Source: Paraspadella gotoi (Eukaryota; Animalia; Chaetognatha). Taken from it: DNA of 16,305 nucleotides. The first letter of the stretch is position 1. Every line of letters begins with the position of its first letter. The stretch covers positions 1 to 16,305 of the forward strand of contig JBJCIZ010000192.1 in assembly GCA_051294375.1 (NCBI GenBank), in the 5' to 3' direction. Below are positions 1 through 16,305 of this stretch, piece by piece. The notes under the pieces are model-generated. The model was not told the DNA's origin. It saw only the letters and a program-made list of their open reading frames with translations, and did not search any database. Position numbers and translations under genes: made by a program.

Positions 1-96
1 TATGGGGAATGGTGCAAGGGGAAAACTTTTTTGCTGTGGCGTGATTTTATTTATCTCTTTCATGTCTTTTACTCTTACTTCTAGGAGTCAAAGAGA

Positions 97-864
97 ATGT
101 TGCAAGAGTTGCCATTGGAACTCTTACAAAAGATAGTGGGCTATCTGCCCATTAAAGAGAAACTACTACTGCTAGAGACGTCGGCTCTCTTCGACAAAGC
201 TGTCGATGTACAAATGGAAACGAAATCAACCTTTGAAATACGGCCCCGGAGACGATTAATCTTATGCTTGAACAGCGTCGACACTGACGGAAACATCGAG
301 CAAGCCCTTCAAACCTATAAAGAAGTTCATCTAATCATCGGCGCCGAAGTAACGGGAATTCCTGACCGCAAGCTAGCCAAAAGAGTGGTCAAGTTCATCA
401 AAAGGGTCACACACAAGGGGAGACATCGGTTCAAGATGGTGGAGTTGATGGGACGGCTGGGGAGTTGCCCATGCACATGGGGAGAGATCTTCAAGGGGAC
501 AGAGTCAGTTGTTCTTACCGACGATCAAGAGCCAGTAACCTTATGCCAAATGGGACAGGAAAGTGAAAGAGAAGCCTGTTTAATCTACAATGGACGGGGA
601 TTTTTGTCAGCAATGCAAGAAGTCCAAGATTCCATGGGGCCAGAAGTTCGGTTTCTTCTACGCGGAGATTTGATCAAATGTGATTTAATTCTCCCAATAG
701 CGGATGCCATCAAGGCCTTCGACGCCATCCACTGGTTTGACGAGGATATGGTCCCGCGAGTGGTCCCGAGTTTCAAGTTTGGCATCCCAAGGGAAATGTG
801 CTGTAATTATTGTGAAGAAAGGAGGCCCAAGGCCCATAAGGAAGCTCGTGATCTACTCTTTTGA
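97..864 (+). CDS. F-box protein (N-terminal F-box, unrecognised C-terminal domain), 255 aa
   Basis: N-terminus LQELPLELLQKIVGYLPIKEKLLLLETSALFDKAV fits the F-box pattern LPxExLxxIxxYLxxxxxxxLxxxSxxF; intact ORF preceded by acceptor-like TCTTTTACTCTTACTTCTAG (AG 83-84). Confidence 0.8.
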   Translation: MLQELPLELLQKIVGYLPIKEKLLLLETSALFDKAVDVQMETKSTFEIRPRRRLILCLNSVDTDGNIEQALQTYKEVHLIIGAEVTGIPDRKLAKRVVKFIKRVTHKGRHRFKMVELMGRLGSCPCTWGEIFKGTESVVLTDDQEPVTLCQMGQESEREACLIYNGRGFLSAMQEVQDSMGPEVRFLLRGDLIKCDLILPIADAIKAFDAIHWFDEDMVPRVVPSFKFGIPREMCCNYCEERRPKAHKEARDLLF

Positions 865-1004
865 TGGGGCAACAAATACTCAACTTCTTATGTTTTAGTT
901 ATCCATTTTTTTTATTTTTGTTTGTTGGTTTGTTCGAGTTCCCTTATGACTTTATTTTTCGTACTTACTCTTATAAGTTAATAGTAAATAGAACCAAGGG
1001 TAAC

Positions 1005-1511
1005 ATGGCCATTTCATGGGACGCCTTATGGGGATTGGAGGTCGACAAGGGGGAGGAAGATTTTCTAGCGGATTTAATTAATCAACAACCTCAACCCACG
1101 GGGGAATGGACAAATATGGAGCAACCAAATGTGTCAAACCTGGTCACCATGACAAGCAGTACTCAAGTTACCACCGTAGCCTCCCCTGAGGAGTCAAATC
1201 AAGGAATCACCGAGACAGACAATCCTGATTCTCAACTTTTCAGATGCGGGATTTGTGATGAAGCATTTCCCAATATCCATGCTCGAAGCTCTCACACTAG
1301 GGTTCACAAGCCCAAGTGCTATGAGTGTGGACTGAAGAGTTCATCAAGACACGCTCATCTCATTCATCAGTGGAATGAACATCCAAAGAAATACGGCTGC
1401 AAGTTTTGTGGTTATAAAACAAATTCCTTAACCGAAATGCCTTTCCACATTCTCAATCATGCAGAAATGCAGCCCGTGGCTGAAATGGTTTACGTTCATA
1501 TGGAGGGATAG
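1005..1511 (+). CDS. C2H2 zinc-finger protein (3 fingers) with acidic N-terminus, 168 aa
   Basis: FRCGICDEAFPNIHARSSHTRVH, KCYECGLKSSSRHAHLIHQWNEH and YGCKFCGYKTNSLTEMPFHILNH (nt ~1239-1460). Start placed at ATG 1005 (MAISW) because the upstream in-frame stretch is a T-rich spacer. Confidence 0.85.
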   Translation: MAISWDALWGLEVDKGEEDFLADLINQQPQPTGEWTNMEQPNVSNLVTMTSSTQVTTVASPEESNQGITETDNPDSQLFRCGICDEAFPNIHARSSHTRVHKPKCYECGLKSSSRHAHLIHQWNEHPKKYGCKFCGYKTNSLTEMPFHILNHAEMQPVAEMVYVHMEG

Positions 1512-1683
1512 GAATGGGGAACTTGATTCTAGAGAGGAATAGAAAAACGGGGTGAAGCCAAGGGGACGTGTTAAGAATTTTGTTTCACTGTTAATGATTT
1601 TTATTCTTTCATTGTATTGTTAAATATTTAGGTAAAAACAAAATTGAGTTAATGTTTTGTTTCTGTTGATTGTTTTAGCTAAG

Positions 1684-2229
1684 ATGTCGAGAAAAGTTAT
1701 GTGGGGAGAGGGCTTCTTGGACAACCGATGTGGCAACGTCATCGTCCGCAACCTCCGTGTTCAAGCAACCAATGAAGGGGAGAAAGACCCAGGGGAACGG
1801 GTTAACCAGATCCTGCAAGCCATGCAGACAATGATTTACCTGAAGGAATGGGAGGAAGAGACCGACATATTGCTCAAGTTGTGGAACCAGAAAGGGGGAG
1901 AAAAACTGGATGACTTGTCCAAGCTTCCAAGAAAAAAGAACCAACAGATCAAAAGAACATCTGCAGCCTTCAATGAGGCTCGTCAAGCATGCACTACCAA
2001 AGACTTAGGCACACTTGTCAAACATGCCGTTGCCCTCACAGGACATATTGTGGAACTCAAATACAAAAGAAAAGCAAAGTTCACAGACGAGATTGGACTG
2101 TTCATCCAACATATTTTGTCTATCATGAGGAAACCAATGGGGGATAATAAGGGGGATACTGATGGTCCAGAGAGTAGTGAGGAGGATTCCATGGGGGGTG
2201 AGTCATCCGACTCAGTGACTGTTGAATAA
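1684..2229 (+). CDS. Hypothetical helical protein with acidic/Ser-rich tail, 181 aa
   Basis: Intact ORF with GC/purine content like its neighbours, between AT-rich spacers; ATG 1684 is 5 nt after TTTTGTTTCTGTTGATTGTTTTAG (AG 1677-1678). No family recognised. Confidence 0.65.
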   Translation: MSRKVMWGEGFLDNRCGNVIVRNLRVQATNEGEKDPGERVNQILQAMQTMIYLKEWEEETDILLKLWNQKGGEKLDDLSKLPRKKNQQIKRTSAAFNEARQACTTKDLGTLVKHAVALTGHIVELKYKRKAKFTDEIGLFIQHILSIMRKPMGDNKGDTDGPESSEEDSMGGESSDSVTVE

Positions 2230-2410
2230 GTCAGAGGGTTAACCCAACAACGTGTTAGTTTGAATTCTATTGTTAAATTAAAATTTTTATTGTTAAATAT
2301 TGTTAAAATTTTAAAATTTATAAGATTTAGTCTTGCTGTCACTAGAATTTTTTTCATAATTCTTGAAATTTAATTGTTGCATAGTTAACTTTAGTTACAG
2401 GTCATGCACA

Positions 2411-3682
2411 ATGAATTTTAATTGGGAAAACCTGGAAGAGGTTAATGAACTGAGGAAGAGAATACGTTCAATGGAAGCTGAACAATCGGGACTGAAAAGC
2501 TGGTTGAACAAAGAAGTGGAAGAAAAGACTCGGCTTAAGATCATCCTGGACAATGAAGAAAGAGAAAGTAAAAGACTTCGCCGAGAATTGGAAAAAGAAA
2601 GGCAAGATGCTCACCGCATGAGACAAGTGGTTGTGGAATCAACTGGGGGCATAGAATTCCAAGCGGTCAAAGAAGATGGGTTTGCAATCGTTCCAATAAG
2701 AGAAATTACGGAGGAGTTACGAAGGGGAATAGAAGCGGATATTCTTGTTGGAATTTTAAAAAATAAGGGAGTGTACGAAGATGTGGTGATGGAATTAAGG
2801 GATTTTCAGGATATCCCAGCAAATGCTTTTGAAAATCCAGGATTTACCCGTGGAATCCCGTTTACCATAGAGGATAAGGAAATGGAGCCTTTATTAAAAT
2901 CACTCCAGAAGGACTTTGATATTACTAAATATCACAATCAGAATGAGGCGCTGAATCTGAAGACAAACCAACTACAGCTGAGGGAGCACCAGCTAAACCT
3001 CCGGGAGGAGGATCTTAAGAAAAAATCCCAGGTTATCCTTAGTTATATGAAGGACGAGCAAATGACTTTCCTAAACCAACAGAGGGATAGATTCAAGGAG
3101 ATGTGGAATGCGACTTGGACGTATAATGTGGTTGCAAAAAACCCGGTGGTTCCCTTTGAAAGAAAGAATAGTATTTCTCCAATTAGGTACGAAGTGGACG
3201 ATTATGGAAATGGGGCTAAAAAGGGGGATAGCAGTGAAGGGGTAAGAGTTAATGAAGAAAAAGATGGACCTGAGCTACAACTGGCGGTGAATGAAGAAGA
3301 GAGAGAGGAGTTTGAGACGAGCATGGGGATGTTAATGGAGGCAACTGAAGAAAGCCTCTTGAGCACTTTAAAGATCTACCAAGAAGCGGCAGATTGTCAT
3401 ATAGATGTCAGCAACCAGCTAAGTTCTTTCTTAAAGTATTGTGTCAAAAAGAAAAGAACTGGAGAAGAAATATTGCCATTCAAAACTTATATGCGGAAAC
3501 AACTCATTTGCCGAAAGTGTTATTGTACTCATGTCCGCCACTTGGATCCCATGTGCAGCAAAATGTGTTGTAATACTGTCCGCTGTCGCTATTGCTTGCA
3601 CCCCTACGACGGTCCCAAGAAATGTCAATGCAAATGTAAACATGCCCAGTCCTTCTTAACACACGTGATGGCAAACTTTTAG
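2411..3682 (+). CDS. Coiled-coil protein with C-terminal Cys/His-rich putative zinc-binding domain, 423 aa
   Basis: E/K/R/L-rich heptad-like segments (LEEVNELRKRIRSMEAEQ..., LNLKTNQLQLREHQLNLREEDL); C-terminal CRKCYCTH...CSKMCC...CRYCLH...CQCKCKH; ATG 10 nt after TTACAG (AG 2399-2400). Confidence 0.75.
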   Translation: MNFNWENLEEVNELRKRIRSMEAEQSGLKSWLNKEVEEKTRLKIILDNEERESKRLRRELEKERQDAHRMRQVVVESTGGIEFQAVKEDGFAIVPIREITEELRRGIEADILVGILKNKGVYEDVVMELRDFQDIPANAFENPGFTRGIPFTIEDKEMEPLLKSLQKDFDITKYHNQNEALNLKTNQLQLREHQLNLREEDLKKKSQVILSYMKDEQMTFLNQQRDRFKEMWNATWTYNVVAKNPVVPFERKNSISPIRYEVDDYGNGAKKGDSSEGVRVNEEKDGPELQLAVNEEEREEFETSMGMLMEATEESLLSTLKIYQEAADCHIDVSNQLSSFLKYCVKKKRTGEEILPFKTYMRKQLICRKCYCTHVRHLDPMCSKMCCNTVRCRYCLHPYDGPKKCQCKCKHAQSFLTHVMANF

Positions 3683-3894
3683 AGTAACTCATGGGGATTT
3701 TCTAAGGGGTTTTGCCAAATTGGGACACTGCAGGGCGTAGAACTACTCTACGCGGATATTCTATTATTATTGCTATTCGTATCAATACACTGATTGTGAT
3801 CAATTACATTGTCTAATTTCGATATTACCAGTAGTAAAAATCCTTAGTTCCTTTGTTTCATGTATTTTTGTTATTTAAATTCCAGTTTTACCCA

Positions 3895-5586
3895 ATGGAA
3901 ATTTTCCCGAATATTGATATTTTAAACTGTTTTGAGGCAAGGAGCCTTGATGAAAACTCAATAAAAACTCTCCAACAAGAGGACCCGAATATAGCCTTAC
4001 TAAGAAAACACGTGGAGGAGCAAACGGCTCCAAATTGGACTCTCAGTGGGCTGAACGAGTACAGAACGGTTTTTAAGAAACTACAAATCAACGACGAGAT
4101 AGTATTAAAAAGAAATCCTAACGGTGAAGAGGTTCCGCTCGTCCCTGAGAAGATAATCCAACAGGTACTTTATTCGGTTCATGGTGGGGCATTTTCTAAT
4201 CATTATGGGTTAACTAAAACATATTTAAAGCTACAGAGCAAATGCTATTTCCCGAGGATGATGTATAGAGTCGCAGAGTTTGTTAACTCTTGTCGTAAGT
4301 GTATAGAAAGAAAAATACCAGCTCGTGAAACTAAGGTAGAAACACAACCTATTCCATTTGAGGTTTTAGAAATAGGGGGCGTGATTTCTTATGACTTTAA
4401 GGGACCCTTGCCGCCGAGTGAAAAGAGTTCCTTATATCAAAGTAAAAATAGGTTTGTCTTAAGTATAATTGATTTTGCCTCTCGTTATGTCATAGGAACC
4501 CCTACTCCTACAATGGAGGCGGAAGTTGTTGCAGAAGTATTATTAAACGTATGGATACCACGATTCGGGGTTCCTCGCAAGGTAATTTCTGATCGTGCTC
4601 GGAGTTTTACGGGGAAGGTTATGAGGGTAGTTTATGATACTTTAAAAGTAGAAGTCGCGTTTACGGCGTCTTATAATCCTCAATGTAATGGCTTAATTGA
4701 ACAAACCAACCGTCATTTATCTAGTTTGCTAGCAGTGGTATTAGAAAATCATATTTATAGTTGGCCTCGTTACATTAATACTATTTTTAGTGCATATAAT
4801 GCAACGCCGCAATGTACAACTAAACTTTCGCCAAATTATATAGTTTATGGTCGAGAATTAGTAGAACCAATTGATTTTATTTTGGGTAGGTTCCGTGAAG
4901 GCGGGCGAAAGGAGAAAACGATTTACGACGAGCTGGAGGACCGAATAAAACTGCGCACTAAGGCCCTACACCTCCTGGAACTAAGGTACGCCGAGGCAAG
5001 CGAACGGGAGATTTCGAAATCTAAAGAAAAAGCTAATTCGTCTGTATTTCTAGTTGGAGATATGGTAGCCTTTAGGCCACCAGTAAAGCCAGGAAAGCTT
5101 GAGAGAAAAATGGAGTTATGTCACCAAGTAATTAAAATATTGTCTCCGTCGACATATGTAATCAAAAATTTAAATACAGGATTTGAAAGAATAGTAAACA
5201 GTAGAAGATTAAGGGGTTTAGGGCCACATAACGGTATTATTGATGAGCACTTAAACATCTCAGGGAGAGAAGACATGGGGGAGCGACCGACCACGGAGGC
5301 CACGCCCTTGCAGCAAGTTTCGTACGACGATACCGCTGATGAAGACTCGGAGGAAAGTAACGGGGAAGCCGGAAGAGACGAAGAAACGATCCCACTTAAA
5401 CAGGTGCAATGTAGAACTGAGGAGGGAAAAGCAATAAGACAGTCAGATGTCGAAATAAGCAAAATTATTATAGTAGATAAAAGCCTAAATGTTAATAAGG
5501 AGGCTGCTGCAACAGGGAGAACGGATGGTGGGGCTGGACAATATAATTTAAGGAGACGAGTGAAAAAAATTAATTATAAACTATAA
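3895..5586 (+). CDS. Ty3/Gypsy/Ginger-type DDE integrase, stand-alone ORF, 563 aa
   Basis: HHCC zinc domain (H-GGAFSN-H...CRKC); rve core SYDFKGPLP, IIDFASRY, ISDRARSF, YNPQCNGLIE with exactly 35 residues between the second D and the E; YNATP..TTKLSP motif; degenerate GPY/F-SH3-like region (FLVGDMV...KL...STYVI); basic C-terminal tail. Confidence 0.95.
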   Translation: MEIFPNIDILNCFEARSLDENSIKTLQQEDPNIALLRKHVEEQTAPNWTLSGLNEYRTVFKKLQINDEIVLKRNPNGEEVPLVPEKIIQQVLYSVHGGAFSNHYGLTKTYLKLQSKCYFPRMMYRVAEFVNSCRKCIERKIPARETKVETQPIPFEVLEIGGVISYDFKGPLPPSEKSSLYQSKNRFVLSIIDFASRYVIGTPTPTMEAEVVAEVLLNVWIPRFGVPRKVISDRARSFTGKVMRVVYDTLKVEVAFTASYNPQCNGLIEQTNRHLSSLLAVVLENHIYSWPRYINTIFSAYNATPQCTTKLSPNYIVYGRELVEPIDFILGRFREGGRKEKTIYDELEDRIKLRTKALHLLELRYAEASEREISKSKEKANSSVFLVGDMVAFRPPVKPGKLERKMELCHQVIKILSPSTYVIKNLNTGFERIVNSRRLRGLGPHNGIIDEHLNISGREDMGERPTTEATPLQQVSYDDTADEDSEESNGEAGRDEETIPLKQVQCRTEEGKAIRQSDVEISKIIIVDKSLNVNKEAAATGRTDGGAGQYNLRRRVKKINYKL

Positions 5587-5673
5587 TGGAGAATATAAAA
5601 CAGTTATGTTCAATTTAATTCATAGCAGTGAGTTAGCTTAGTAACTTAAGTCGTTGTAACCTTACCCTACCAG

Positions 5674-5893
5674 CTCTCTAAAAGAAAAGGAGGTAATCAT
5701 TCTTCACTCACGATCGGGGGATAAGAAAAGGAAGAAAATCCGCGCTACCGCCGCAGCGACTGTAGCAGCAGCAGCATCAGTAATAAACTTTTCTCGAAAC
5801 TGAAGGACACGGAATAGAAACGGAGATAAACGCGGCGGCGACTCACCCTTCGGCAAGAACAGGTGCCGATGCTTGGAAAAAAAAAAAAATTGA
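5674..5893 (+). pseudogene. Possible small basic exon interrupted by one TGA
   Basis: Acceptor-like CCTTACCCTACCAG (AG 5672-5673), then a GC-rich frame SLKEKEVIILHSRSGDKKRKKIRATAAATVAAAASVINFSRN*RTRNRNGDKRGGDSPFGKNRCRCLEKKKN*; no ATG. Confidence 0.25.
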
Positions 5894-6079
5894 TTAATTA
5901 ATCTATAAATAAATGATTAATTAAAAAATGGATAAATGATTAATTAAGCAATGAAAAAATGATTGGGAGAAATTCGACTACTAATCTAAAGTAAAATGTA
6001 ATGAAATATAATTAAGTATATTTCTGGTAGAGAATATCCTTTTTAATTTAATGTACTTTTAATTTCAAAGTTAATTTTA

Positions 6080-6122
6080 ACGCTGATAAAGACTCGAATA
6101 TGAAGAGTCGAAACATGTCCGT
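6080..6122 (+). ncRNA. Minimal type I hammerhead ribozyme-like motif (Penelope-like), core variant G8>A
   Basis: ACG-CTGATAA-A-GACTC-gaatatgaa-GAGTC-GAAA-CATGTC-CGT: stem I ACG/CGT, perfect 5-bp stem II, palindromic ACATGT helix III, GUC cleavage triplet; AATAAA follows. Confidence 0.5.
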
Positions 6123-6283
6123 ACATAAATAAAATCATTGATGAAACTATTTTCAAACTTTGTTAAATTTAATTTTAAATTGTGTTCTTTTTAATTAGGA
6201 AAGAAAAATAATAAAGGGATAAAGAAAGTTAAAACTTTTGATGAAAGACTATTAATTCTTTCTTTTTTTGTTTAAAATTATCA

Positions 6284-7465
6284 ATGATGGCGGAATATAT
6301 TACAGCAGAAAATAAAAATATAGTAAATCGATTTGTCTGCCTAATAAAGCAGGAAAAAATTAATGAAGCCTTCGAAATGGCGTTTGAGGAAGGGCCAACT
6401 CTAAAGGCTGTGCATATTGCTATAGAATGTAACTGTGAATCATTACTTCAGAAACTAATAGGAGGGGGATGGGATCTAAATGAGGCACGGGAGTTTGATC
6501 GTAACCGCCCTATACACGAAGCCATTAACTATAAGAGAGTTTCTATGTTTAAGCTGCTTTTGGGAAGTGGAGCTTCTTTTAGGAAGGGGGATGGATCGGG
6601 GAATACAGCTTTAATGAAACTATTTCAAATGCCCTGGGACGAGAGAAGTGAGAAAATGTATGAGATTCTAGAACCGTTACTACGTAAGGATGATTATGGT
6701 AGATATAATTATCACGGCGACTCAATTTTACATATTTTAGTATCAAACAATTCTATTCAATCTCCAGCCACCGTTCTGTCTATGATTGATAAGGGCGCCG
6801 ATATAAGAAGGAGAGACGCTTATTTGCAAGATAATTTTTTGATAAAATGCTTAATAAAGAGAGACGAAACCTTCATGATTACTATATTAGATGGGTTGGA
6901 AGAGAGAGGGCTAAAGATTAATATCCGTGGCTCAGCGGGAAACCCAGTTCTCCATCGGGCTATTATTGAGGAAAAGAATGCAGTTATAAATAGGATTTTA
7001 GAGTCAGCACAAACCAAAGTAAATACTGAAAATAGTAGGGGACAAACGGCGTTATGGCTGGCAGCCAAAATGGGTAACACTCAATTAGTACAAGACCTAT
7101 ATGAGAAAGGGGGAAGCCTGAATGATAAGGCCTTGATTGACTGTGGTTCCACCTCAAGAACCCCGGTACATGCAGTCGCCGCTAAATTTAACCATCTTTT
7201 ATTGAGTATCATTATTAAAGAATGGGAAACTGAAAGGGGGCTTGGTAACGCGGTGAACTGTGACCCAGGCCGAATAGTTAAGGATCTTAGAAATTTATGT
7301 AAAATTAAAATTAGAACAAGCTTATTACGAGCAAATCAAGGTCGAATGCTCTTTTCTAAACATTACGATGGGCTCCCTCTTCCAGAGAGGCTTAAGAAAT
7401 ATATCAGGATGCCTGGTAGAATGGGCTTAGTAAATTGTAATACGTTAAGAGTAAAAGGTGTTTAG
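6284..7465 (+). CDS. Ankyrin-repeat and SOCS-box protein (ASB-like Cul5 substrate receptor), 393 aa
   Basis: Multiple ankyrin repeats (RPIHEAI, GNTALMKL, GDSILHIL, GNPVLHRAI, GQTALWLAAKMGN, RTPVHAVA); C-terminal BC box KDLRNLCKIKIR plus Cul5 box LPLPERLKKYI (nt 7277-7405). Confidence 0.9.
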   Translation: MMAEYITAENKNIVNRFVCLIKQEKINEAFEMAFEEGPTLKAVHIAIECNCESLLQKLIGGGWDLNEAREFDRNRPIHEAINYKRVSMFKLLLGSGASFRKGDGSGNTALMKLFQMPWDERSEKMYEILEPLLRKDDYGRYNYHGDSILHILVSNNSIQSPATVLSMIDKGADIRRRDAYLQDNFLIKCLIKRDETFMITILDGLEERGLKINIRGSAGNPVLHRAIIEEKNAVINRILESAQTKVNTENSRGQTALWLAAKMGNTQLVQDLYEKGGSLNDKALIDCGSTSRTPVHAVAAKFNHLLLSIIIKEWETERGLGNAVNCDPGRIVKDLRNLCKIKIRTSLLRANQGRMLFSKHYDGLPLPERLKKYIRMPGRMGLVNCNTLRVKGV

Positions 7466-7753
7466 TAAAATTCTTATTGTTATTATTACAATTTATTCCC
7501 CGTCATGATCAGATAATAATTTTTAAAATAAACATATTTTAACTACCGTCAAAGTATAATTCATCCATTCACGTAAGAATAATATTTGGATATAGTTTAA
7601 TTAGTTTATGGTTCAAACAATAGCATAGCAAACTCTTGTTAGACATTTTACCGCTTGGTTTAAATAAAAATTGGGTTGTCTCTATTAATCTGTTTGTTAG
7701 AACAGTAAAAAGATTACTACTTAGTTACGGAAATGCTAACTTAAACCTTTCAG

Positions 7754-7965
7754 ACATTCAACGGAACCACGCATGGATAAAGGCGTTGATCATCAAGGGG
7801 AACATGAACAAGAGGATTGAAAGCATTTTGGCGCCGAACACTGCACTCACGGTGCAACGACTAAGAGGGAGATGACGTGAGTCACGGCGAACACAGCGGC
7901 GGACAAACGCGGAATATTTAATTGAAACTGAGCTGCGACGAATAACTGGCGAAAAAAGAAGATAG
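7754..7965 (+). pseudogene. Small Arg-rich exon with one internal TGA
   Basis: Branch-like GCTAAC plus TTAAACCTTTCAG acceptor (AG 7752-7753); frame IQRNHAWIKALIIKGNMNKRIESILAPNTALTVQRLRGR*RESRRTQRRTNAEYLIETELRRITGEKRR* covers the GC-rich island. Confidence 0.35.
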
Positions 7966-9240
7966 CGTGACCTATTATTGTTGCCTCAAGCTACGAAGTC
8001 CTCCCTCCTTGGGGGAATATTGTAAAAATAGTTACATTATGAGATTATTACTTGATCGTTATTTGAATGTTACTAAATTGGGTAACCCATATTTTATAGG
8101 ATAATATTTTCCAATACCCGAAAATAACCTCCAATTCCATCCAATTGAATTGTTAATTGTTCTGGTTCGCTCGGGTAAGGTGCAAAGAATCAATTAGATC
8201 AGTTAACGCCCGTTTATTACTCCTTGTCTGCTAAGTAAAACTGTTAGTAGAGTCAGTCTTTTGTTTTATAATTCCTTGATGATAACAACGGGAGAAATAG
8301 TACAAATAGTAACGAATTAATAAGATAATGATGTAGATTTCACACGTTTTTTGATCAGTTGGTTAGCGTCATTATGATAAATGAAATTTCTTTTATCTCT
8401 GAAGAGGAAAGATCAATCAGTTTTTAATTTACGCCGTGAACCATTATGGATTTTTTATGGGTTGAGTAAAGGATACTCAGCTTGTTTTCATCTAAATACG
8501 ACTTTTGGTTTTAATTCTACATGATACGACTGATTTTGTGATTTTCTGTGATTATTAATAAAAAGTGAACTATAGCCATAGTAATAGGTTTAAAATAATT
8601 ATAATCATTGACTTAAATTAAAACCTCTTTGGTTAATATGATTATAATAGTTAATATTATACTACTATATAGAGTTAACACTAATAATTAAAACATAAGC
8701 TTAAATCTGTTTAAAACATGTAGCTACTGAGGAATACTCTAAAATTTCAAATTATTGGTTTAATTAATAAAACAAAATATGCTATACTATACATATGTAT
8801 ATATATGAAGGTAAAAGATGCTCTTTTTTTTTCTTAGGGAAAATATTCCAGGTTCGCTCGTGTTTAAGTTTAGTTCGTCCAGCTCCAGTCTATCGTTATG
8901 GAACACATATTCGTTCTGAGGATCTATTTTAATGCATTAAAATTAAATTATTATTATTTAAATATTCTTATACCAGAATTTAACTGATTAACTGATTAAA
9001 CGTTTTTGAGGAAACTCGATGCCAATATATTATTAATCTTAAGTATAATTAATGAGTAAGAGCCATCTGGGAACTTTTTTTTTGCGCGGAATAATACACC
9101 GGTTAAACGTGTCGATTTTTTTTTGCTTTACGGTTTTGCGAATGTAAATTTTCTCTTCATTTACAATACAAAAGTGTAGTATAAGGTTTTAATTTTATAT
9201 TATTAAGTTTTGGGAATGTTAATAATTAAAGGTCCGCTCC

Positions 9241-9406
9241 CGTTGCTTTTCACATTTTGGCTTTGCAAATTTATAAAAAACTTTTCGGCACGTCTCATCG
9301 TTGCTTCTCAGCATTTTGGCATTGCGAATTTATCAAAATTTTTTGATACGTGTCTCGTGGCATTTCGGCACCTTGGCTTTGCTAGTTTATCAATTTTTTT
9401 TCCCGT
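9241..9406. repeat. Three diverged tandem copies of a ~57-bp unit
   Basis: Units start at 9241, 9299 and 9356 and share CGT(T/G)GC...CA(T/C)(T/C)TTGGC(T/A)TTGC...TTTAT.AA. Confidence 0.75.
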
Positions 9407-9418
9407 ATTTACAACAGT

Positions 9419-9421
<3 letters not shown>

Positions 9422-9461
<40 letters not shown>
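9422..9461 (+). repeat. Poly(A) tract (40 nt)
   Basis: Uninterrupted A run. Confidence 0.95.
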
Positions 9462-9463
<2 letters not shown>

Positions 9464-9738
9464 ATAAAAATAAATAAATAATATATTTTACTTTCGGTAA
9501 CGGAATACTACTGCCGGCGTATGTGGATGCTTTTTTTTTTTTTTTTTTCGTCAGTTGTAATTAATTAATTAATGGTAAAAACTTTTTATTACTTTACCAG
9601 TGTCCTTTTCCATTTTGCGTAATGAAATAGCTAATATACTCAAGTAGAGAAGTATCTTTTATTTTTTTTGTTAGGCAACCTACTGTATTAATTGTAAAAT
9701 GTTTTCTATTAATTTATAGAGTCAGTCCTGATACTAAT

Positions 9739-10737
9739 ATGGCGTCTTGGCCAGTACCGGCTGGAGCGGAGGACGAACTTGAATGGGAATTCCAAGAAAC
9801 TTTGCGAATCGCGATTGAGGCAAGTCTCCGAGAAGTGCCACATCAACCTCAGATAGTATTCAATAACGCGGAACAAACCAAGAGGAATTCTGGAAAGGGG
9901 CGCCAAATGGAATTGGTGGAAGAAGGGACTCACGAGCCAACATATGGAATCCAGACAGAAGGGGCCGCACAAGGAGAAGAAGAGACAACGGTCCGGCCAC
10001 AAGCGCCGATCTTTACCTTGGAGGAGATCGTTGAAAGGGGTGTGGACGAGTCATTCGACCCTTTTGAACTCAGGTGTCTAATCTGCCTTGATCTGGCCAG
10101 AATTCCGGTGATGATGAAGGGCTGCAAGAAGATCCTCTGCAAATCGTGCATTGATACGTGGACTGCCGGCCACGTTTCATGCCCTCACTGTCGGCGTCGT
10201 AACCCTGGCTACATAAGTACAGATGAATCCTTTGTAATAGATCTAGTAAAGGAAGTTGATGAAACAAAAGAAAGGGTAAAGAAATGGGGGATTGAGGAAG
10301 GAAAAAGGAGGGAAAGGCAACAAAGAGAGGGGCGACTCGTCGACGCTGAAGCTCAGACGGATCAACGAAAAGAGCTTCAACAAAGAGGGAGACGGCTCGT
10401 CGACGCCATAGCTCAGACAGATCAAAAACGTCAACAAGGGGGCACCCATCAAAAGGGGGAAATTCGAGTCAACGCTACGAGACCTAACAGGGGGGACTCG
10501 CCGGAGACACTTAATAGGAGGGCCAATGCTTTCATGTCTGCCCTGGACTCATCTCTAAACCAGGCACCTGCCGAGGAAGTTCTAGTTTACGACGGCCTGC
10601 GCACTCAAAACCGGCCCACAGCGGAATTTGTTTCATCTTATCGCGAATTACCAGAGCAGGGGGCGGAGACGGGGCTGTTGCTAACGACACGGGAAATGCT
10701 GACGAGACATCCGCATCAGCCACGCTGCAGGTTTTGA
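9739..10737 (+). CDS. UIM + RING-finger protein (putative E3 ubiquitin ligase), 332 aa
   Basis: UIM-like EDELEWEFQETLRIAIEASLRE (nt 9769-9834); RING-like CLIC-x12-CKKILCKSCIDTW-x6-CPHCR (nt 10075-10191); acceptors at AG 9673-9674 and 9718-9719. Confidence 0.85.
   Translation: MASWPVPAGAEDELEWEFQETLRIAIEASLREVPHQPQIVFNNAEQTKRNSGKGRQMELVEEGTHEPTYGIQTEGAAQGEEETTVRPQAPIFTLEEIVERGVDESFDPFELRCLICLDLARIPVMMKGCKKILCKSCIDTWTAGHVSCPHCRRRNPGYISTDESFVIDLVKEVDETKERVKKWGIEEGKRRERQQREGRLVDAEAQTDQRKELQQRGRRLVDAIAQTDQKRQQGGTHQKGEIRVNATRPNRGDSPETLNRRANAFMSALDSSLNQAPAEEVLVYDGLRTQNRPTAEFVSSYRELPEQGAETGLLLTTREMLTRHPHQPRCRF
10318..10437 (+). repeat. In-frame 60-bp tandem duplication inside the RING gene
   Basis: QQREGRLVDAEAQTDQRKEL / QQRGRRLVDAIAQTDQKRQQ; DNA lines 10321 and 10381 align in register. 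Confidence 0.85.
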
Positions 10738-10912
10738 AAACAGCACAAAGCTTAATAATAAAAAAAAAAAAATATATATATATATTTTATTATTAAAATA
10801 AAAGTAAATAGTCAATATACTAAAATGTAAAATTGAAAGTGGTAACGTGGTAAATGGGTTAAGGTAAAATGAAGAACCCAGTAGTAATTATAAAAATGAT
10901 ATAAATTTTTAG

Positions 10913-11111
10913 GTTGTACCACAATGTGACAGAGTTCATCCATGCGGCGACCACCATCGGTGAAAGCGGAAGGGCGGTGACGGTACACGCGGTATTGGCA
11001 AAAATCTCTGATTGCCGCTTCTGCAACCACGCGCCGTGCATGGTGGAAGTAAGGGGGAAAAAGATGAGGACGCAGCCGCATACGCACCTCCAATGCTATA
11101 GGTTCGTGTAA
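10913..11111 (+). CDS. Small Cys/His-containing coding exon lacking an N-terminal ATG
   Basis: AAATTTTTAG acceptor (AG 10911-10912) then GC-rich open frame LYHNVTEFIHAATT...CRFCNHAPC...HTHLQCYRFV*. Confidence 0.4.
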
Positions 11112-11328
11112 ACTAATGTGAATTGCAGTGTTTATCCAGTTAACTTCATTACGTAATATAGATAATATAAAGTAAATAATACAAGTATATTTTGTGAGAT
11201 GCCCATTGCCCAGTATTACTGTACCTTACTAAGTGTTCATTGTACCTATAAGCATATGGACGAATCAACTTAGTGTCATAAAAATTGCATAAATATAATA
11301 AAAATAATAAATCCTTTATTAATCATAG

Positions 11329-11686
11329 CCTTTGCTGCGGGCGATTTCTAAATCGGACAACGCTGCAATTTGATGGAGGAAATTGTGACTGTGGGATAGC
11401 CTTGATGTTCAACCTAAATGTACTTCCGGCGACGCAAGAAGAAAACAAGGGGCTCCGTGCGGCGTATTCTTACAAAAAAGACTTATGGCTAATCCATAGA
11501 GTGCATCACGCACTAAAGTCTTACTTCCGTCTCCTAGAAACAAGTAATCGTTGGGACGTGGAACTTAAAGTATTAAAAAGGGGAAGAGAAGGGTTACGGC
11601 GATTCCTCGCTCAAAATCATAGTGGCCTCATACAAGACCTTAAGGAACTAGTGGCTGAGGCGGAGAGAGAGGAAAAGGGGATTTAA
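11329..11686 (+). CDS. Hypothetical coding exon (~118 aa; internal ATG at 11405)
   Basis: TCCTTTATTAATCATAG acceptor (AG 11327-11328) marks the switch from AT-rich to coding-like sequence; frame LCCGRF...CDCGIALMF...EAEREEKGI*. Confidence 0.5.
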
Positions 11687-12565
11687 GGGGGTACCAGCTG
11701 TAGTATAGTTACCATTTACTCGATCCTTGAATTTTTTTCTATTGATCAAGGCATGTAGCCTGCTCTGTTCACTTTTATAATTGTTACGTTGCCATTAAAA
11801 ATACTTCAATCAGAATATTAATTGTACTGTGAGCAGTTGCTTACTAATACATTCCTGTTCTTTCTTCTCTTTGTAGCTTTGCTGTTATTGTTGCCTATTG
11901 AGTTTCGAGTTTGATTTTATTGGTTCGCATATTAATTTAAATTGTTTTACTGTTACTACAATATTGAAAATAAATTTCAATTAAAATGTGTCCGGTTTAG
12001 TACCAATTTGAGTTATCAGACCTACTTAATGGATAGATTGGTACGTTAGTCAGATTAGTATCATCAAAACCCGAATTTTGAGGTAAAAACCTAGACAGAT
12101 TGCTGAAGTAAAAGTCGATTGTTAAACCACGTCAAAGTTTATTGTGTGACTTCGCTGACGGAATGATGAACAGGAGATCAACGGTTAGGCGAAGTACATA
12201 GCCTAATATTTAAAAATAAATTGCCGGAAAAACGATTTTTGAATGTTAGTGAGGGGGAGAGGGAGAGATAAGAACATTCACTAAATATTAAAAAAATCGT
12301 GTACTTCCCAAACAAACCATACAATGATTTATAAACTGTCTGCTTCAACGTGAACAAGGAGAAACCTGTAAATAGTTTGAAATATACAACAAATTCTATT
12401 GTATTATGAATTACCAAGTTACGACCTGATGACTTACCTAAGTACCCTCACAATACCAAACAACAACTAACAGTAAAATCACAGTACCAAGAACAATACA
12501 AACCAAGTGAATGTGACGTGAACCTCAGACCCAAATAACATAAAGCTCACAAACTAACCTACTAG

Positions 12566-12751
12566 CCAAAAGTAACCCTGCTACATCCGGATTTCCCTTC
12601 TGACGTTCGTGATCAAATTCATGGGGGAATATTGCTTCTACTGGGAAAAACCGTGGATGCATCGTCCAAACAAAAGGACGTCGAGCAATTACAGAGTGGC
12701 CTCAAGAAAACTTTTGGGGAAGAAAAAAGGGGGGAAATGGTAAAAGGTTAA
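12566..12751 (+). other. Possible small ATG-less exon (61 codons)
   Basis: After CTAACCTACTAG, open frame PKVTLLHPDFPSDVRDQIHGGILLLLGKTVDASSKQKDVEQLQSGLKKTFGEEKRGEMVKG*; acceptor is weak. Confidence 0.25.
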
Positions 12752-13008
12752 TTATAATGGATACAGGGTGGTCAAAAAAAAAAAAATATATATTATATAT
12801 TAATAAATATTTGATTAAAAATAGATAAATATTAAATAGTATACTATAAATAAGATTAAATTAAATAAGAATAATAAATAGAATATAATAATACAGTAAA
12901 TAAATAATTAATAAATAAAATTATAATTTAATAAATTAAATAGTACTCTATATGGATGACTAACCGTGTTAATATTAAACGAGGATCTTATATCAGAGAT
13001 TTTGATGT

Positions 13009-13018
13009 GGGAAGGGAA
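13009..13018 (+). other. Polypurine tract (plus-strand primer site)
   Basis: GGGAAGGGAA directly abutting TGTTATAAG, the proposed LTR start. Confidence 0.65.
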
Positions 13019-13776
13019 TGTTATAAGAAATTGTTAATAGCATGATTTTTGATATCTTTTACATATATCATGATATATAAGCAGTTATAATTTGTGTAAT
13101 TTCTTTTCAGGTTTGTATAAAACTTTTGTTTAGAAAGAAAGAGGAACCTTTTATAAAATTATATATATTAATTAATTAACTTAAAATCATATGGTTTGGT
13201 TAATATAAATAATATAAAAATAGTAAAGAAAAAGACTATAGGAAGAAATAAGATTATTAACGAAGATTAAGTATAATTGGGTATTAAATTGGTTAATTTT
13301 GCCACATCATAAAAAGATAGGTGAGATTGACGAATCCAAGGGAGCAGAGGAATTAAAACGTTAGAGATAATAAGATAGAAAAAGAATTGATCAGGAATTT
13401 GTGAAATAACGAGCTTAGAGATTTTCTAAACTCATACAGTGAACGAAAGAAATGCTATTTGTAAGGTTTCATCAAGTGAGATAACATTAAACAGAGAGAT
13501 GTTGTGGAGCTTCTCTCTACTTGTTAGATAAAGCCAAATCAGAAAGCAGAAATGATCAGGTTACCAATAAGAATTCAGTATAAATTAATTGAGCGTAAGA
13601 AGGGATCTTTAGAGATTTAGAAATTAGATTGAAATCAGAGTAGTAGCGTAAGAGTTCAGGCAAGGAGAAACTGAATAGTTTCAAGTACATCCCCGTAACG
13701 CAATTATCGAAACGGAATATAATTATATATTATCTACTATGGATATGTGCATAAAGAACGAGAGCTCAGTAGGGCT

Positions 13777-13811
13777 TATAAAAGGAGAGGGAGCTGCTTG
13801 AAAGGACAGTC
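13777..13811 (+). promoter_or_regulatory. LTR core promoter: TATA box and initiator-like element
   Basis: GGGCT-TATAAAA-GGAGAG at 13777-13783; ACAGTC (Inr-like, A at 13808) 31 nt downstream. Confidence 0.55.
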
Positions 13812-14125
13812 CTCATTTCCACTCTGATTAGGGACAATATATGCATACCCCACTTCTTCTAGGGCTGAAGTTAATATTTGGGTAGTGTGTTACTATAAAA
13901 TAGTAACAATTTATAAGGTTAACCTAAATATAATTGGCCAGAATAGTACCCCAAGTACTATGGTGGTTACTACTTAGTAAAAGAAGTAGTGTAACATAAT
14001 TACAGAGTGTATAAACCAAACCCTAAATGGGAAACTGTAAATAATTAATATTCGTACAACTAATTCCTGTTCCTCTTTCTATATATTTTTGTGTAATTAA
14101 TTGTGGTCTGGCTAGATTGGATGGT

Positions 14126-14131
14126 AATAAA
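14126..14131 (+). terminator. Candidate LTR polyadenylation signal AATAAA
   Basis: AATAAA downstream of the TATA box, followed ~20 nt later by CA and a GT-rich TTGTGTGTCT. Confidence 0.4.
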
Positions 14132-14518
14132 GTAGAATTATAGTAATATATCATTGTGTGTCTACTATAGAGACCAGCTAGAATATGAGATTTTGGTTAG
14201 GCTAAGGGAACAACAGGGAATTGCTTTTAGATACCAAGTGATGCCCTGGGCTAGGAACTGATAGGGCCTTGAGGGACTTCTTCAACAGGTTAGCCTGGAT
14301 AAGGTTTAGGAACTATATATAACCCTTATTAGCTAGAATATAAATATCTATCATATTATAATCTGTGGACTGAGATATGAACTAAACTGGTGCACCAGTA
14401 TACGTATAAGGTATAAAGACTCCTGACTTACCGACACCAAACGGGTGAACCCCGGGCTCTAGGAATATTAAAACAACATATAATTTCTAGAACAGTTCGT
14501 CCTTGAAGTCGTCGTGAC

Positions 14519-14521
<3 letters not shown>

Positions 14522-14580
<59 letters not shown>

Positions 14581-14610
14581 AGAGGAGAGAGAGAGAGAGA
14601 AGAGAGGAGA
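14522..14610. repeat. (GA)n microsatellite, imperfect
   Basis: Direct reading. Confidence 0.95.
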
Positions 14611-14658
14611 TAGTGAAGGAATGAATCAGGAAAGGATTCCCACGAGATAGGCTCAAAA

Positions 14659-14879
14659 TTTCCTTTCTGTCTTTCTTTCTTTTGTTTTATTCTTTCTTTT
14701 TTTCTGTCTATAGCTTTTTCTATTTTCTTGGATTTGTTCTTGTGTCTTTGCGTGTGGTTATTTGATAATTTGACAGCATTTCTGTTTCTAGCTTTGAGAC
14801 ATCGCAATATTATTTTTTTTTGTCTTGTATCTTTCTTTTCTTTCTTTCTTTCTTTCTTCTTTCTCTTTTCTTTCTTTTT

Positions 14880-14912
<33 letters not shown>

Positions 14913-15283
14913 TCTTGTTCTGACGTTGAAATTTTATTGTTTTTTTCTCCTGTCTTCTTTTCTTTCTTTCTTTTTTCTTTCGTTCTTTTTTAATTTTTTT
15001 TCGTCCTCAGTTTTTTTATTTGTTTTTCTCATTCTTTCTATTTTCATTTTTTCCCCTTTTTTTTTCTCTTTCTTATTTTGTTCTTTAATTTTTTCTCTCA
15101 AGACTTTGCATTTAGACACAGTGCGCGCCCTCTACGATGAAGGAGCCATTGGGTGCGATCGTCATAAAAGGAAAGGGTCACAGAGAAAAGAAGGATATAG
15201 AGAAGGAGAGGATTGGATAGAAAGGAATAAAGAAAGGAAAATAAAAGAAGAAAAGAGAAGATAAAAGTAAGAAAAGAGAAGAA
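14659..15283. repeat. Low-complexity host flank: (TTTC)n-like pyrimidine tract followed by purine-rich tract
   Basis: TTTC/TTCT runs ~14659-15097; A/G-rich runs ~15166-15283. Confidence 0.85.
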
Positions 15284-16305
15284 AGTTCACGGAAGCGAAG
15301 TGCGAAGAAATTAATCGGGCGAAGAATAATGGAATTGTGAAATGTGAACTCAGTGTAAATCATGAGGTGAAAACTCACGAGCGTATTCTCTCTCTCGTTC
15401 GCTCTTTCGCTCCCTTAACTTATCAGTTCGCATTCTCTCGCTATCTTCTTTTGGTGAATTTTCTAATAGAATCAAGTTACTAAAACATTTCAAAAAAATA
15501 TTAAAGCTTGCATTTTTACTGTTGGGACAGGCTAACTATACTAATATGGGGGTAGGGAATCTGATGGTAAGGTCAAAACCGTCGAAACCTCGATATCGCT
15601 TGACTACCAGGCCTGAATGAGCTTTTTAGCTTTTTTTAGAATTTCCCATAATTTTTGTAGTTTATTATTATCCAACTGAAATAAACAATAATTAATTAGT
15701 TTTTTATTCTTTTTTTTACCCATTTAAAGTACAATTAATGATTTACTTTAATATTTTTTCTTCTTAGCCCTAAACGACATAATACCTCAAAAAAAGGTTT
15801 TTTTAAAATTTTGCTAAAAATTTATTCTGATTTTTTTGTAATCACTATTTTAAATTGGCAAACATTTAATTCAGGAATAATAAAGTCTTGGTTTGTCTTG
15901 GCATGGTAAGTTTTATTTATCTTCATAGTAAATTATGGACATTTTTGAAGAAGTCATATCTTCATCAGCATAAATTAAAAATTTTTGGAACATGGTTTGA
16001 GAAGAAAAAAAAGAGGAGAGAGAGTGAGAGAGATGGAATTGTTTCCTTCAAAACCATGTTTCCCAAAACTTTTAATTTGCACTGATGAAAACTCTAGTAT
16101 TCACCAAGACCTATTATCACAGTATTATTTTTTAATTATATTAAAAAGAAATTCATATATTAAGTAAAATTGATGAATAAAATTCAAGCTTCAGAATTGA
16201 GTCAATGTTAGGACAGGAGAAAGTAAGGGAAGGGAAGGAGGGTGAGTAAATTTGAGATTGGTAAAAAAAAAAAGAGAGAGAGATCAATACATTTGGCAAT
16301 GTACA

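Follow-up and report, generated by a model that had tools for sequence, protein, structure and literature searches.

A candidate giant Gypsy-derived retroelement with a separately encoded integrase and a ubiquitin-related gene array in the chaetognath Paraspadella gotoi

What kind of element carries a Gypsy-type integrase within a row of accessory genes that ends at what looks like a long terminal repeat (LTR)? The question is raised by a stretch of 16,305 nucleotides from the chaetognath Paraspadella gotoi (assembly GCA_051294375.1, contig JBJCIZ010000192.1, positions 1 to 16,305, forward strand), which we call the window. We consider it probable that the window covers the 3' portion of a giant LTR element of Gypsy descent, in which the integrase has split from pol and the ubiquitin-pathway accessory genes are separate. 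Tentatively, we go further: the element could represent an undescribed lineage, made up of complex retroelements of Gypsy descent that are probably more than 20 kb long. In this lineage pol would be split and integrase expressed separately, at least six accessory genes in a spliced array would provide adaptors for several ubiquitin ligases of the host, and about twenty integrase clusters in public assemblies would be other members.

Seven genes on one strand

Seven open reading frames (ORFs) with an ATG start and at least 160 amino acids lie within positions 1-13018, all on the plus strand and none on the minus strand; 200 local shuffles of this region gave a mean of 0.005 such ORFs. One is the integrase (3895-5586) and six are non-core ORFs. 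GC content is 39-55% in coding parts versus 24-34% in spacers. Between ORF1 and the integrase lie four spacers of 140-212 nt, the size of introns, and none contains AATAAA. A first-pass annotation had described at least five intact non-core ORFs plus small exons, all on the plus strand; we count six, and two small exons proved to be parts of a RING gene (below). It had also described at least 13 kb free of gag, protease, reverse transcriptase (RT) and RNase H, and our searches agree: tblastn and motif scans found none of these, nor env, within the window. The tblastn queries were 193 proteins, with numerous Gypsy polyproteins among them; outside the integrase they gave a single match, a weak zinc-finger match in ORF2 (E 0.006). 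A pattern scan of the window ORFs found no CCHC knuckle, D(T/S)G, YxDD or transmembrane helix. Pfam detected no OTU/Ulp1, PolB, ATPase or capsid family in the window, and an Rfam scan of it gave no match.

A stand-alone integrase and its clade

3895..5586, plus strand: integrase gene (ORF5), stand-alone, Ty3/Gypsy type, 563 amino acids

Is this integrase of the Gypsy type, as first annotated? Our observations support this. It matches Integrase_H2C2 (E 9.5e-14) and rve (E 6.3e-9) in Pfam, and both its HHCC residues (H96/H103/C133/C136) and its catalytic triad (D167-D233-E269, D,D-35-E) are intact. The best relative of solved structure is Ty3 Gag-Pol (profile, E 4e-26), followed by foamy virus integrase; outside its own clade, the nearest relatives are Gypsy polyproteins, and the ESM Atlas returned generic Gypsy-integrase clusters. 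The YPYY and GPY/F motifs are missing. The gene has its own ATG, 57 nt past an in-frame stop, and none of the 3.9 kb upstream contains RT or RNase H.

Close relatives share this arrangement. Seventeen of the 21 matches were 44-53% identical, measured 314-620 amino acids and had no RT domain; some are fragments. Among proteins of 1086-3100 amino acids there were 19 matches to the integrase, none above 30% identity, a blank from such a search being weak. A length-free profile search (best 150 of 82,140) placed no polyprotein in the clade; it added two remoter stand-alone proteins, P0050 and P0055 (28-31%), plus fragments. High-ranked proteins of 1300-3600 amino acids, for which we scanned 16 of the top rows, were considered as potential members and rejected: they are ordinary pol units, repeated or fused, that fall outside the clade (about 29% identical where compared).

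In a FastTree phylogeny of 168 rows, built after 26 of the 193 proteins had been dropped for shortness, one branch with support 1.0 (23 of 168 rows) unites the window enzyme with 22 relatives, of which five are near-copies of other relatives. Every member of this branch is a stand-alone integrase. When 44 of these rows were analyzed in a quick run of IQ-TREE, the clade (15 of 44) was recovered with SH-aLRT 100 and a stem of 1.36 changes per column. The trees contained no labelled Ginger or Polinton enzyme. An N-terminal motif was present in 19 of the 22 relatives checked, and in 13 the Met nearest to it is the called start. Six relatives, in five clusters, have a start called further upstream and an internal Met 8-17 residues before the motif; in three clusters Gln precedes that Met, which at the protein level would fit a CAG acceptor. 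On this evidence, the common ancestor of the clade seems already to have had its integrase as a gene of its own. Its occurrence throughout the clade is the most unusual feature of the system and one that the first-pass annotation overlooked.

Searches further afield yielded little. Viral contigs gave one 47-amino-acid match to the integrase and none for P0050 or P0055; 17 loci in JGI metagenomes (23-32% identity) are ordinary distant integrases; prokaryote genomes contained no locus related to the integrase.

The array is mobile and present in several copies

351..9781, unstranded: segment deleted in a derivative copy in run X5, 9431 bp, joint 350|9782

Is the array a fixed locus or a moving one? 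We compared contigs of sequencing runs X1, X3, X5 and X9 with the window from the RING gene rightwards. Records were filtered for this comparison, and our statements hold for the contigs listed. One X5 contig (9782-10555) opens with 28 letters identical to window positions 323-350, so that ORF1 is joined straight to the RING gene. Two 12-mers at the deletion ends share 11 of 12 bases (microhomology). The deletion takes out the integrase and shifts the frame. Run X5 has no cover at 9480-9648. At the joint, depth in X3 goes from 86.8 to 257.8, and X1 continues across it with no break. We read this pattern as full and deleted copies in differing shares, with the caution that contig depth does not measure copy number. 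Runs X1, X3 and X5 also contain sibling contigs, which are about 92-93% identical to the window (19 differences over 267 nt; 38 over 456 nt). From the deletion copy in another sample and these siblings, we conclude that the array is a mobile, multi-copy unit.

Runs X5-X8 contain 0.43-0.51 of the words of query 5000-14900, versus 0.73-0.75 in X1-X4. Since the deletion joint has 48% of the query to its left, the samples of the X5-X8 study may carry mainly the deleted form. At window position 10083, an X3 contig joins microsatellite-like other DNA, perhaps marking a truncated copy.

The RING gene is spliced

9739..10730, plus strand: RING gene exon 1 (ORF7), C3HC4-type RING whose His ligand is replaced by Lys
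10913..11101, plus strand: RING gene exon 2, 189 nt, preceded by a 182-nt GT-AG intron
11329..11686, plus strand: RING gene exon 3, preceded by a 227-nt GT-AG intron; joint with 30 letters on its short side

The RING domain just clears its Pfam threshold (zf-RING_2, 27.5 bits versus a cut-off of 27.3). A contig from a single run, X9 (depth 2.8), skips 10731-10912 and 11102-11328, both GT..AG. Joined in this way, exons 1-3 run in frame to a stop at 11686 and give a product of 512 amino acids. The splice joints were not found in the three DNA runs (X1, X3, X5). X9 is taken as RNA by a guessed label; no listed run is recorded as RNA. We conclude from this one contig that the small exons really do belong to the RING gene.

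Are the other genes also read from spliced messengers? By a home-made acceptor score, 4 of the 7 ORFs have an acceptor-like AG scoring at least 12.5 within 20 nt of the ATG, against a background of 8.6% of non-coding windows at 12 or above. For ORF1, an acceptor-like AG lies 12 nt 5' of the ATG. Given the strong acceptor-like AGs at these four ATGs and the intron-sized spacers without AATAAA, the sequence favors a single promoter whose transcripts are spliced into the messengers; separate promoters or trans-splicing may act instead. Our home-made donor score is non-discriminating, both confirmed RING donors scoring low, and in-frame fusions between ORFs are therefore possible. The donor/acceptor scan predicts a donor at 2198 and an acceptor at 2385 that may splice ORF3 in frame to ORF4.

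The right end resembles a 3' LTR

13009..13018, plus strand: polypurine tract (PPT) GGGAAGGGAA, 10 purines, adjoining the TG (TGTTA) at 13019
13019..14494, plus strand: 3'-LTR-like segment, 1476 bp, TG...CA, with an imperfect terminal inverted repeat of 13-14 nt
14495..14499, plus strand: flank GTTCG, candidate right half of a target-site duplication (TSD), followed by a GA microsatellite

That the array runs up to a PPT and a TG...CA LTR-like segment had been proposed from the first inspection, and we observed the same. The segment contains a TATA at 13777, a CAGT 30 nt on at 13807 and an AATAAA at 14126. This full anatomy was present in 1 of the 4 PPT and TG...CA pairs in the window and in 7 of 300 shuffles, by criteria picked after the segment had been seen. 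We found no TSD around 13019-14494 as a solo insert, and each terminus occurs in the window as one copy only. Related contigs of higher depth cover 13950-14430, in the 3' part of the segment, as expected of an LTR family. The commonest contigs carry other sequence in place of 13777-13949.

Accessory genes and other features

97..864, plus strand: ORF1, 255 amino acids; F-box-like motif at the N terminus (Pfam F-box E 0.028, below cut-off)
1005..1511, plus strand: ORF2, 168 amino acids; three C2H2-type zinc fingers
1684..2229, plus strand: ORF3, 181 amino acids; no family at cut-off in Pfam, NCBIfam or PHROGs
2411..3682, plus strand: ORF4, 423 amino acids; long predicted helices, Cys/His-rich C terminus
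6284..7465, plus strand: ankyrin-SOCS gene (ANK, ORF6), 393 amino acids; ankyrin repeats, C-terminal SOCS box

F-box, SOCS box and RING are parts of ubiquitin ligases. The ankyrin-SOCS assignment clears Pfam (Ank_2 E 3e-17; SOCS_box 24.0 bits versus a cut-off of 23.5), and the protein's C terminus has pattern matches to what we take to be BC-box-like and LPLP motifs. Two codons before its stop the ORF has AG|GT, as does RING exon 1. ORF2 shows three C-x2-C-x12-H-x3/4-H patterns, and zf-C2H2 Pfam families match it at E 0.0004-0.007, below cut-off. A single-sequence model of ORF1 reached a predicted local distance difference test (pLDDT) score of 40 and gave no fold match. A DxxH-like motif had suggested that ORF1 might be an SGNH/GDSL esterase; we dropped this idea, which had no Pfam, PDB or fold support (pLDDT 40, best Z 5.4). 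The ORF4 model is helical (pLDDT 49), and the helices likely form a coiled coil. ORF4 had no relative among 5527 candidates and no family at cut-off in Pfam, NCBIfam or PHROGs; with no knuckle, no transmembrane helix and no relative, we ruled against its being gag or env.

Three further features were noted. GC-rich islands in the long spacers (about 5690-5880, 7720-8010 and 12540-12740) are possibly more exons or leaders. Just 5' of the RING gene, 9257-9460 holds 2.5 copies of a 57-nt repeat and then a run of about 39 A, which could be a small retroposed insert. In the host flank, 15961-16089 forms an inverted repeat with 51-nt arms and 27 nt between them, resembling a hairpin or a miniature inverted-repeat transposable element.

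Which kind of element?

How would a giant Gypsy-derived element work? Gag, protease, RT and RNase H would lie upstream, together with the 5' LTR. Full-length RNA would start in that LTR, end at the AATAAA of the 3' LTR and be reverse-transcribed, with the plus strand primed at the PPT. Integrase, made separately from its own message, would insert the cDNA. The downstream genes would be read from spliced messengers that each place their ATG first, as in complex retroviruses, and the F-box-like, ankyrin-SOCS and RING proteins would bring in ubiquitin ligases of the host so that restricting factors are removed. Full copies would help deleted ones that lack integrase to move.

Several observations weigh against this reading. 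The window contains no RT, gag, primer-binding site, 5' LTR or TSD, the element running off its left edge, and stand-alone integrases are the norm for DNA transposons (Ginger, Polinton) but not for Gypsy. By itself, the PPT and TG...CA pair does not exceed chance expectation (4 occur in the window; 113 of 300 shuffles). Acceptor-like AGs before ORF2, ORF4 and ANK are weak (7.5-10; background median, 8). The F-box and C2H2 matches fall below Pfam cut-offs, and the RING lacks its His ligand. In the 3' part of the RING gene, sibling differences are 9 silent versus 9 replacement among the 18 sites listed, which does not indicate strong selection. The right end reads TGTTC, versus the TGTNR given for Gypsy and Ginger termini in PMC2836005. 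Finally, the array itself matches contigs at about 100%, and 13198-13704 is without a contig in all four runs, X1 having none on 12860-13704. No listed contig bridges array and LTR, and indels make up most of the difference between the window LTR and the commonest contigs (27 gaps and 7 substitutions in one 385-nt piece), through either assembly errors in the window or a sister LTR subfamily that outnumbers the window's. Hence, the link between LTR and array rests on the window copy alone. The first-pass annotation had proposed a giant element organized like a complex retrovirus. An intact Gypsy-type integrase, a mobile multi-copy array, LTR anatomy without a solo TSD and at least one spliced accessory gene support this proposal in part; against it, no listed contig joins the LTR to the array.

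Could the window instead hold a large DNA element, Ginger2- or Polinton-like, moved with its cargo by its own DDE enzyme, the right LTR being an unrelated neighbor or the end a terminal inverted repeat (TIR)? A stand-alone integrase with its own ATG would suit this, as would the missing YPYY and GPY/F, as in Ginger2, and reads that match the array perfectly and the LTR poorly. We nevertheless judge it unlikely: the PPT lies exactly at the TG, a separately inserted LTR would carry a TSD and has none, the GTTC flank fits neither Ginger1 (CCGG/CCGT) nor Ginger2 (RTATAY) targets, OTU/Ulp1, PolB, ATPase and capsid genes are missing from the window, and the nearest outside relatives are Gypsy polyproteins, in trees without labelled Ginger or Polinton sequences. 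Slightly less likely still is an LTR-bounded element of integrase and cargo with no RT or gag, which relies on a helper Gypsy family for its particles and RT, like a large retrotransposon derivative with its integrase intact. Such an element would account for 13 kb without gag or RT and for a stand-alone integrase in every clade member, and the several related LTR subfamilies at high depth could be its helpers; an intact integrase kept in a deep clade (stem, 1.36) would better suit an autonomous lineage, and the upstream part lies outside the window. We give very little credence to a fixed host gene cluster with a domesticated integrase beside an old LTR. Hosts commonly encode ankyrin-SOCS, F-box, RING and C2H2 proteins, and the RING gene has introns, but a 9.4-kb internal deletion varies between samples of one species, siblings of about 93% identity are present, the genes stand on one strand 140-212 nt apart, and the triad is intact, unlike that of the domesticated Imagin.

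Relation to known systems

Where would a giant Gypsy-derived element of this kind belong? It has the Ty3/Gypsy (Metaviridae) integrase with HHCC and D,D-35-E, and a PPT that immediately precedes a TG...CA segment with the promoter and poly(A) signal of a 3' LTR (full set, 7 of 300 shuffles; PPT and ends alone, 113 of 300). The integrase is not, however, the last domain of a protease-RT-RNase H-integrase pol, nor is it in the clade relatives. Because this defining feature fails, we do not file the element as an ordinary Gypsy member, though on the best reading its working is Gypsy-like.

The nearest known system is Burro (GYPSM1), a planarian giant Gypsy. As described in PMC6431247, it too is Gypsy-like, with an internal region far above 10 kb and extra RING-type, ankyrin and other ubiquitin-related domains. 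It encodes gag, an env-like part, protease-RT-RNase H-integrase and most extras in one polyprotein of about 4,900 amino acids, whereas the window element has no single giant polyprotein; its integrase and extras are each encoded by a short gene of their own, and one of these genes has introns. Nor did we see the BIR, BCL2, MATH or env of Burro within the window. The bdelloid elements Vesta, Juno and TelKA are likewise LTR elements with a captured non-env gene (ORF3), and GPY/F is reduced or lost in some; according to PMC5408684, they differ in having one extra ORF, a canonical pol and LTRs of 159-551 bp.

Ginger1 and Ginger2 share the stand-alone Gypsy-related integrase with H2C2 and DDE, and TG termini. 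According to PMC2836005, they are 2.6-7 kb long, with one gene, TIRs of 40-270 bp (50-180 bp in Ginger2/Tdd) and CCGG/CCGT or AT-rich targets. The YPYY, GPY/F and C-terminal OTU/Ulp1 of Ginger1 are all missing here; H2C2 and DDE without YPYY or GPY/F are also found in Ginger2/Tdd. If 14494 is the element end, the GTTC that follows is not the Ginger1 CCGG/CCGT target, and the TGTTC end and GTTCGT flank do not fit the TGTNR termini and RTATAY target of Ginger2/Tdd. Imagin is presented in PMC12863088 as a domesticated, catalytically dead Ginger1 gene. For Polinton/Maverick, we found no protein-primed PolB, packaging ATPase or capsid among the ORFs scanned, the element running off the window.

Complex retroviruses (foamy viruses, lentiviruses) have accessory genes 3' of the core, spliced messengers and ubiquitin-ligase adaptors against host defense, such as HIV Vif. 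The 3' accessory genes, the splicing and the putative ubiquitin-ligase adaptors of the window element resemble these, whereas its integrase is Ty3/Gypsy-like, not retroviral, and lies outside pol, and the window holds no env. No element arranged in this way turned up in a literature search, although one may be described in Repbase, in subscription journals or in supplements, all of which lay outside that search.

What the element would mean

If RT is missing from the element, it would sit between the LTR retroelements and the DNA transposons of the Ginger type, either of which may descend from the other. If instead the Gypsy-derived reading is true, a Ty3/Gypsy lineage has independently reached the gene-array organization of complex retroviruses, and its integrase enters the particle without being part of Gag-Pol, a problem thought to need a polyprotein. 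The array would then offer ubiquitin-ligase adaptors encoded by a retrotransposon as a set open to testing, and the targets of these adaptors would indicate how the host restricts its elements.

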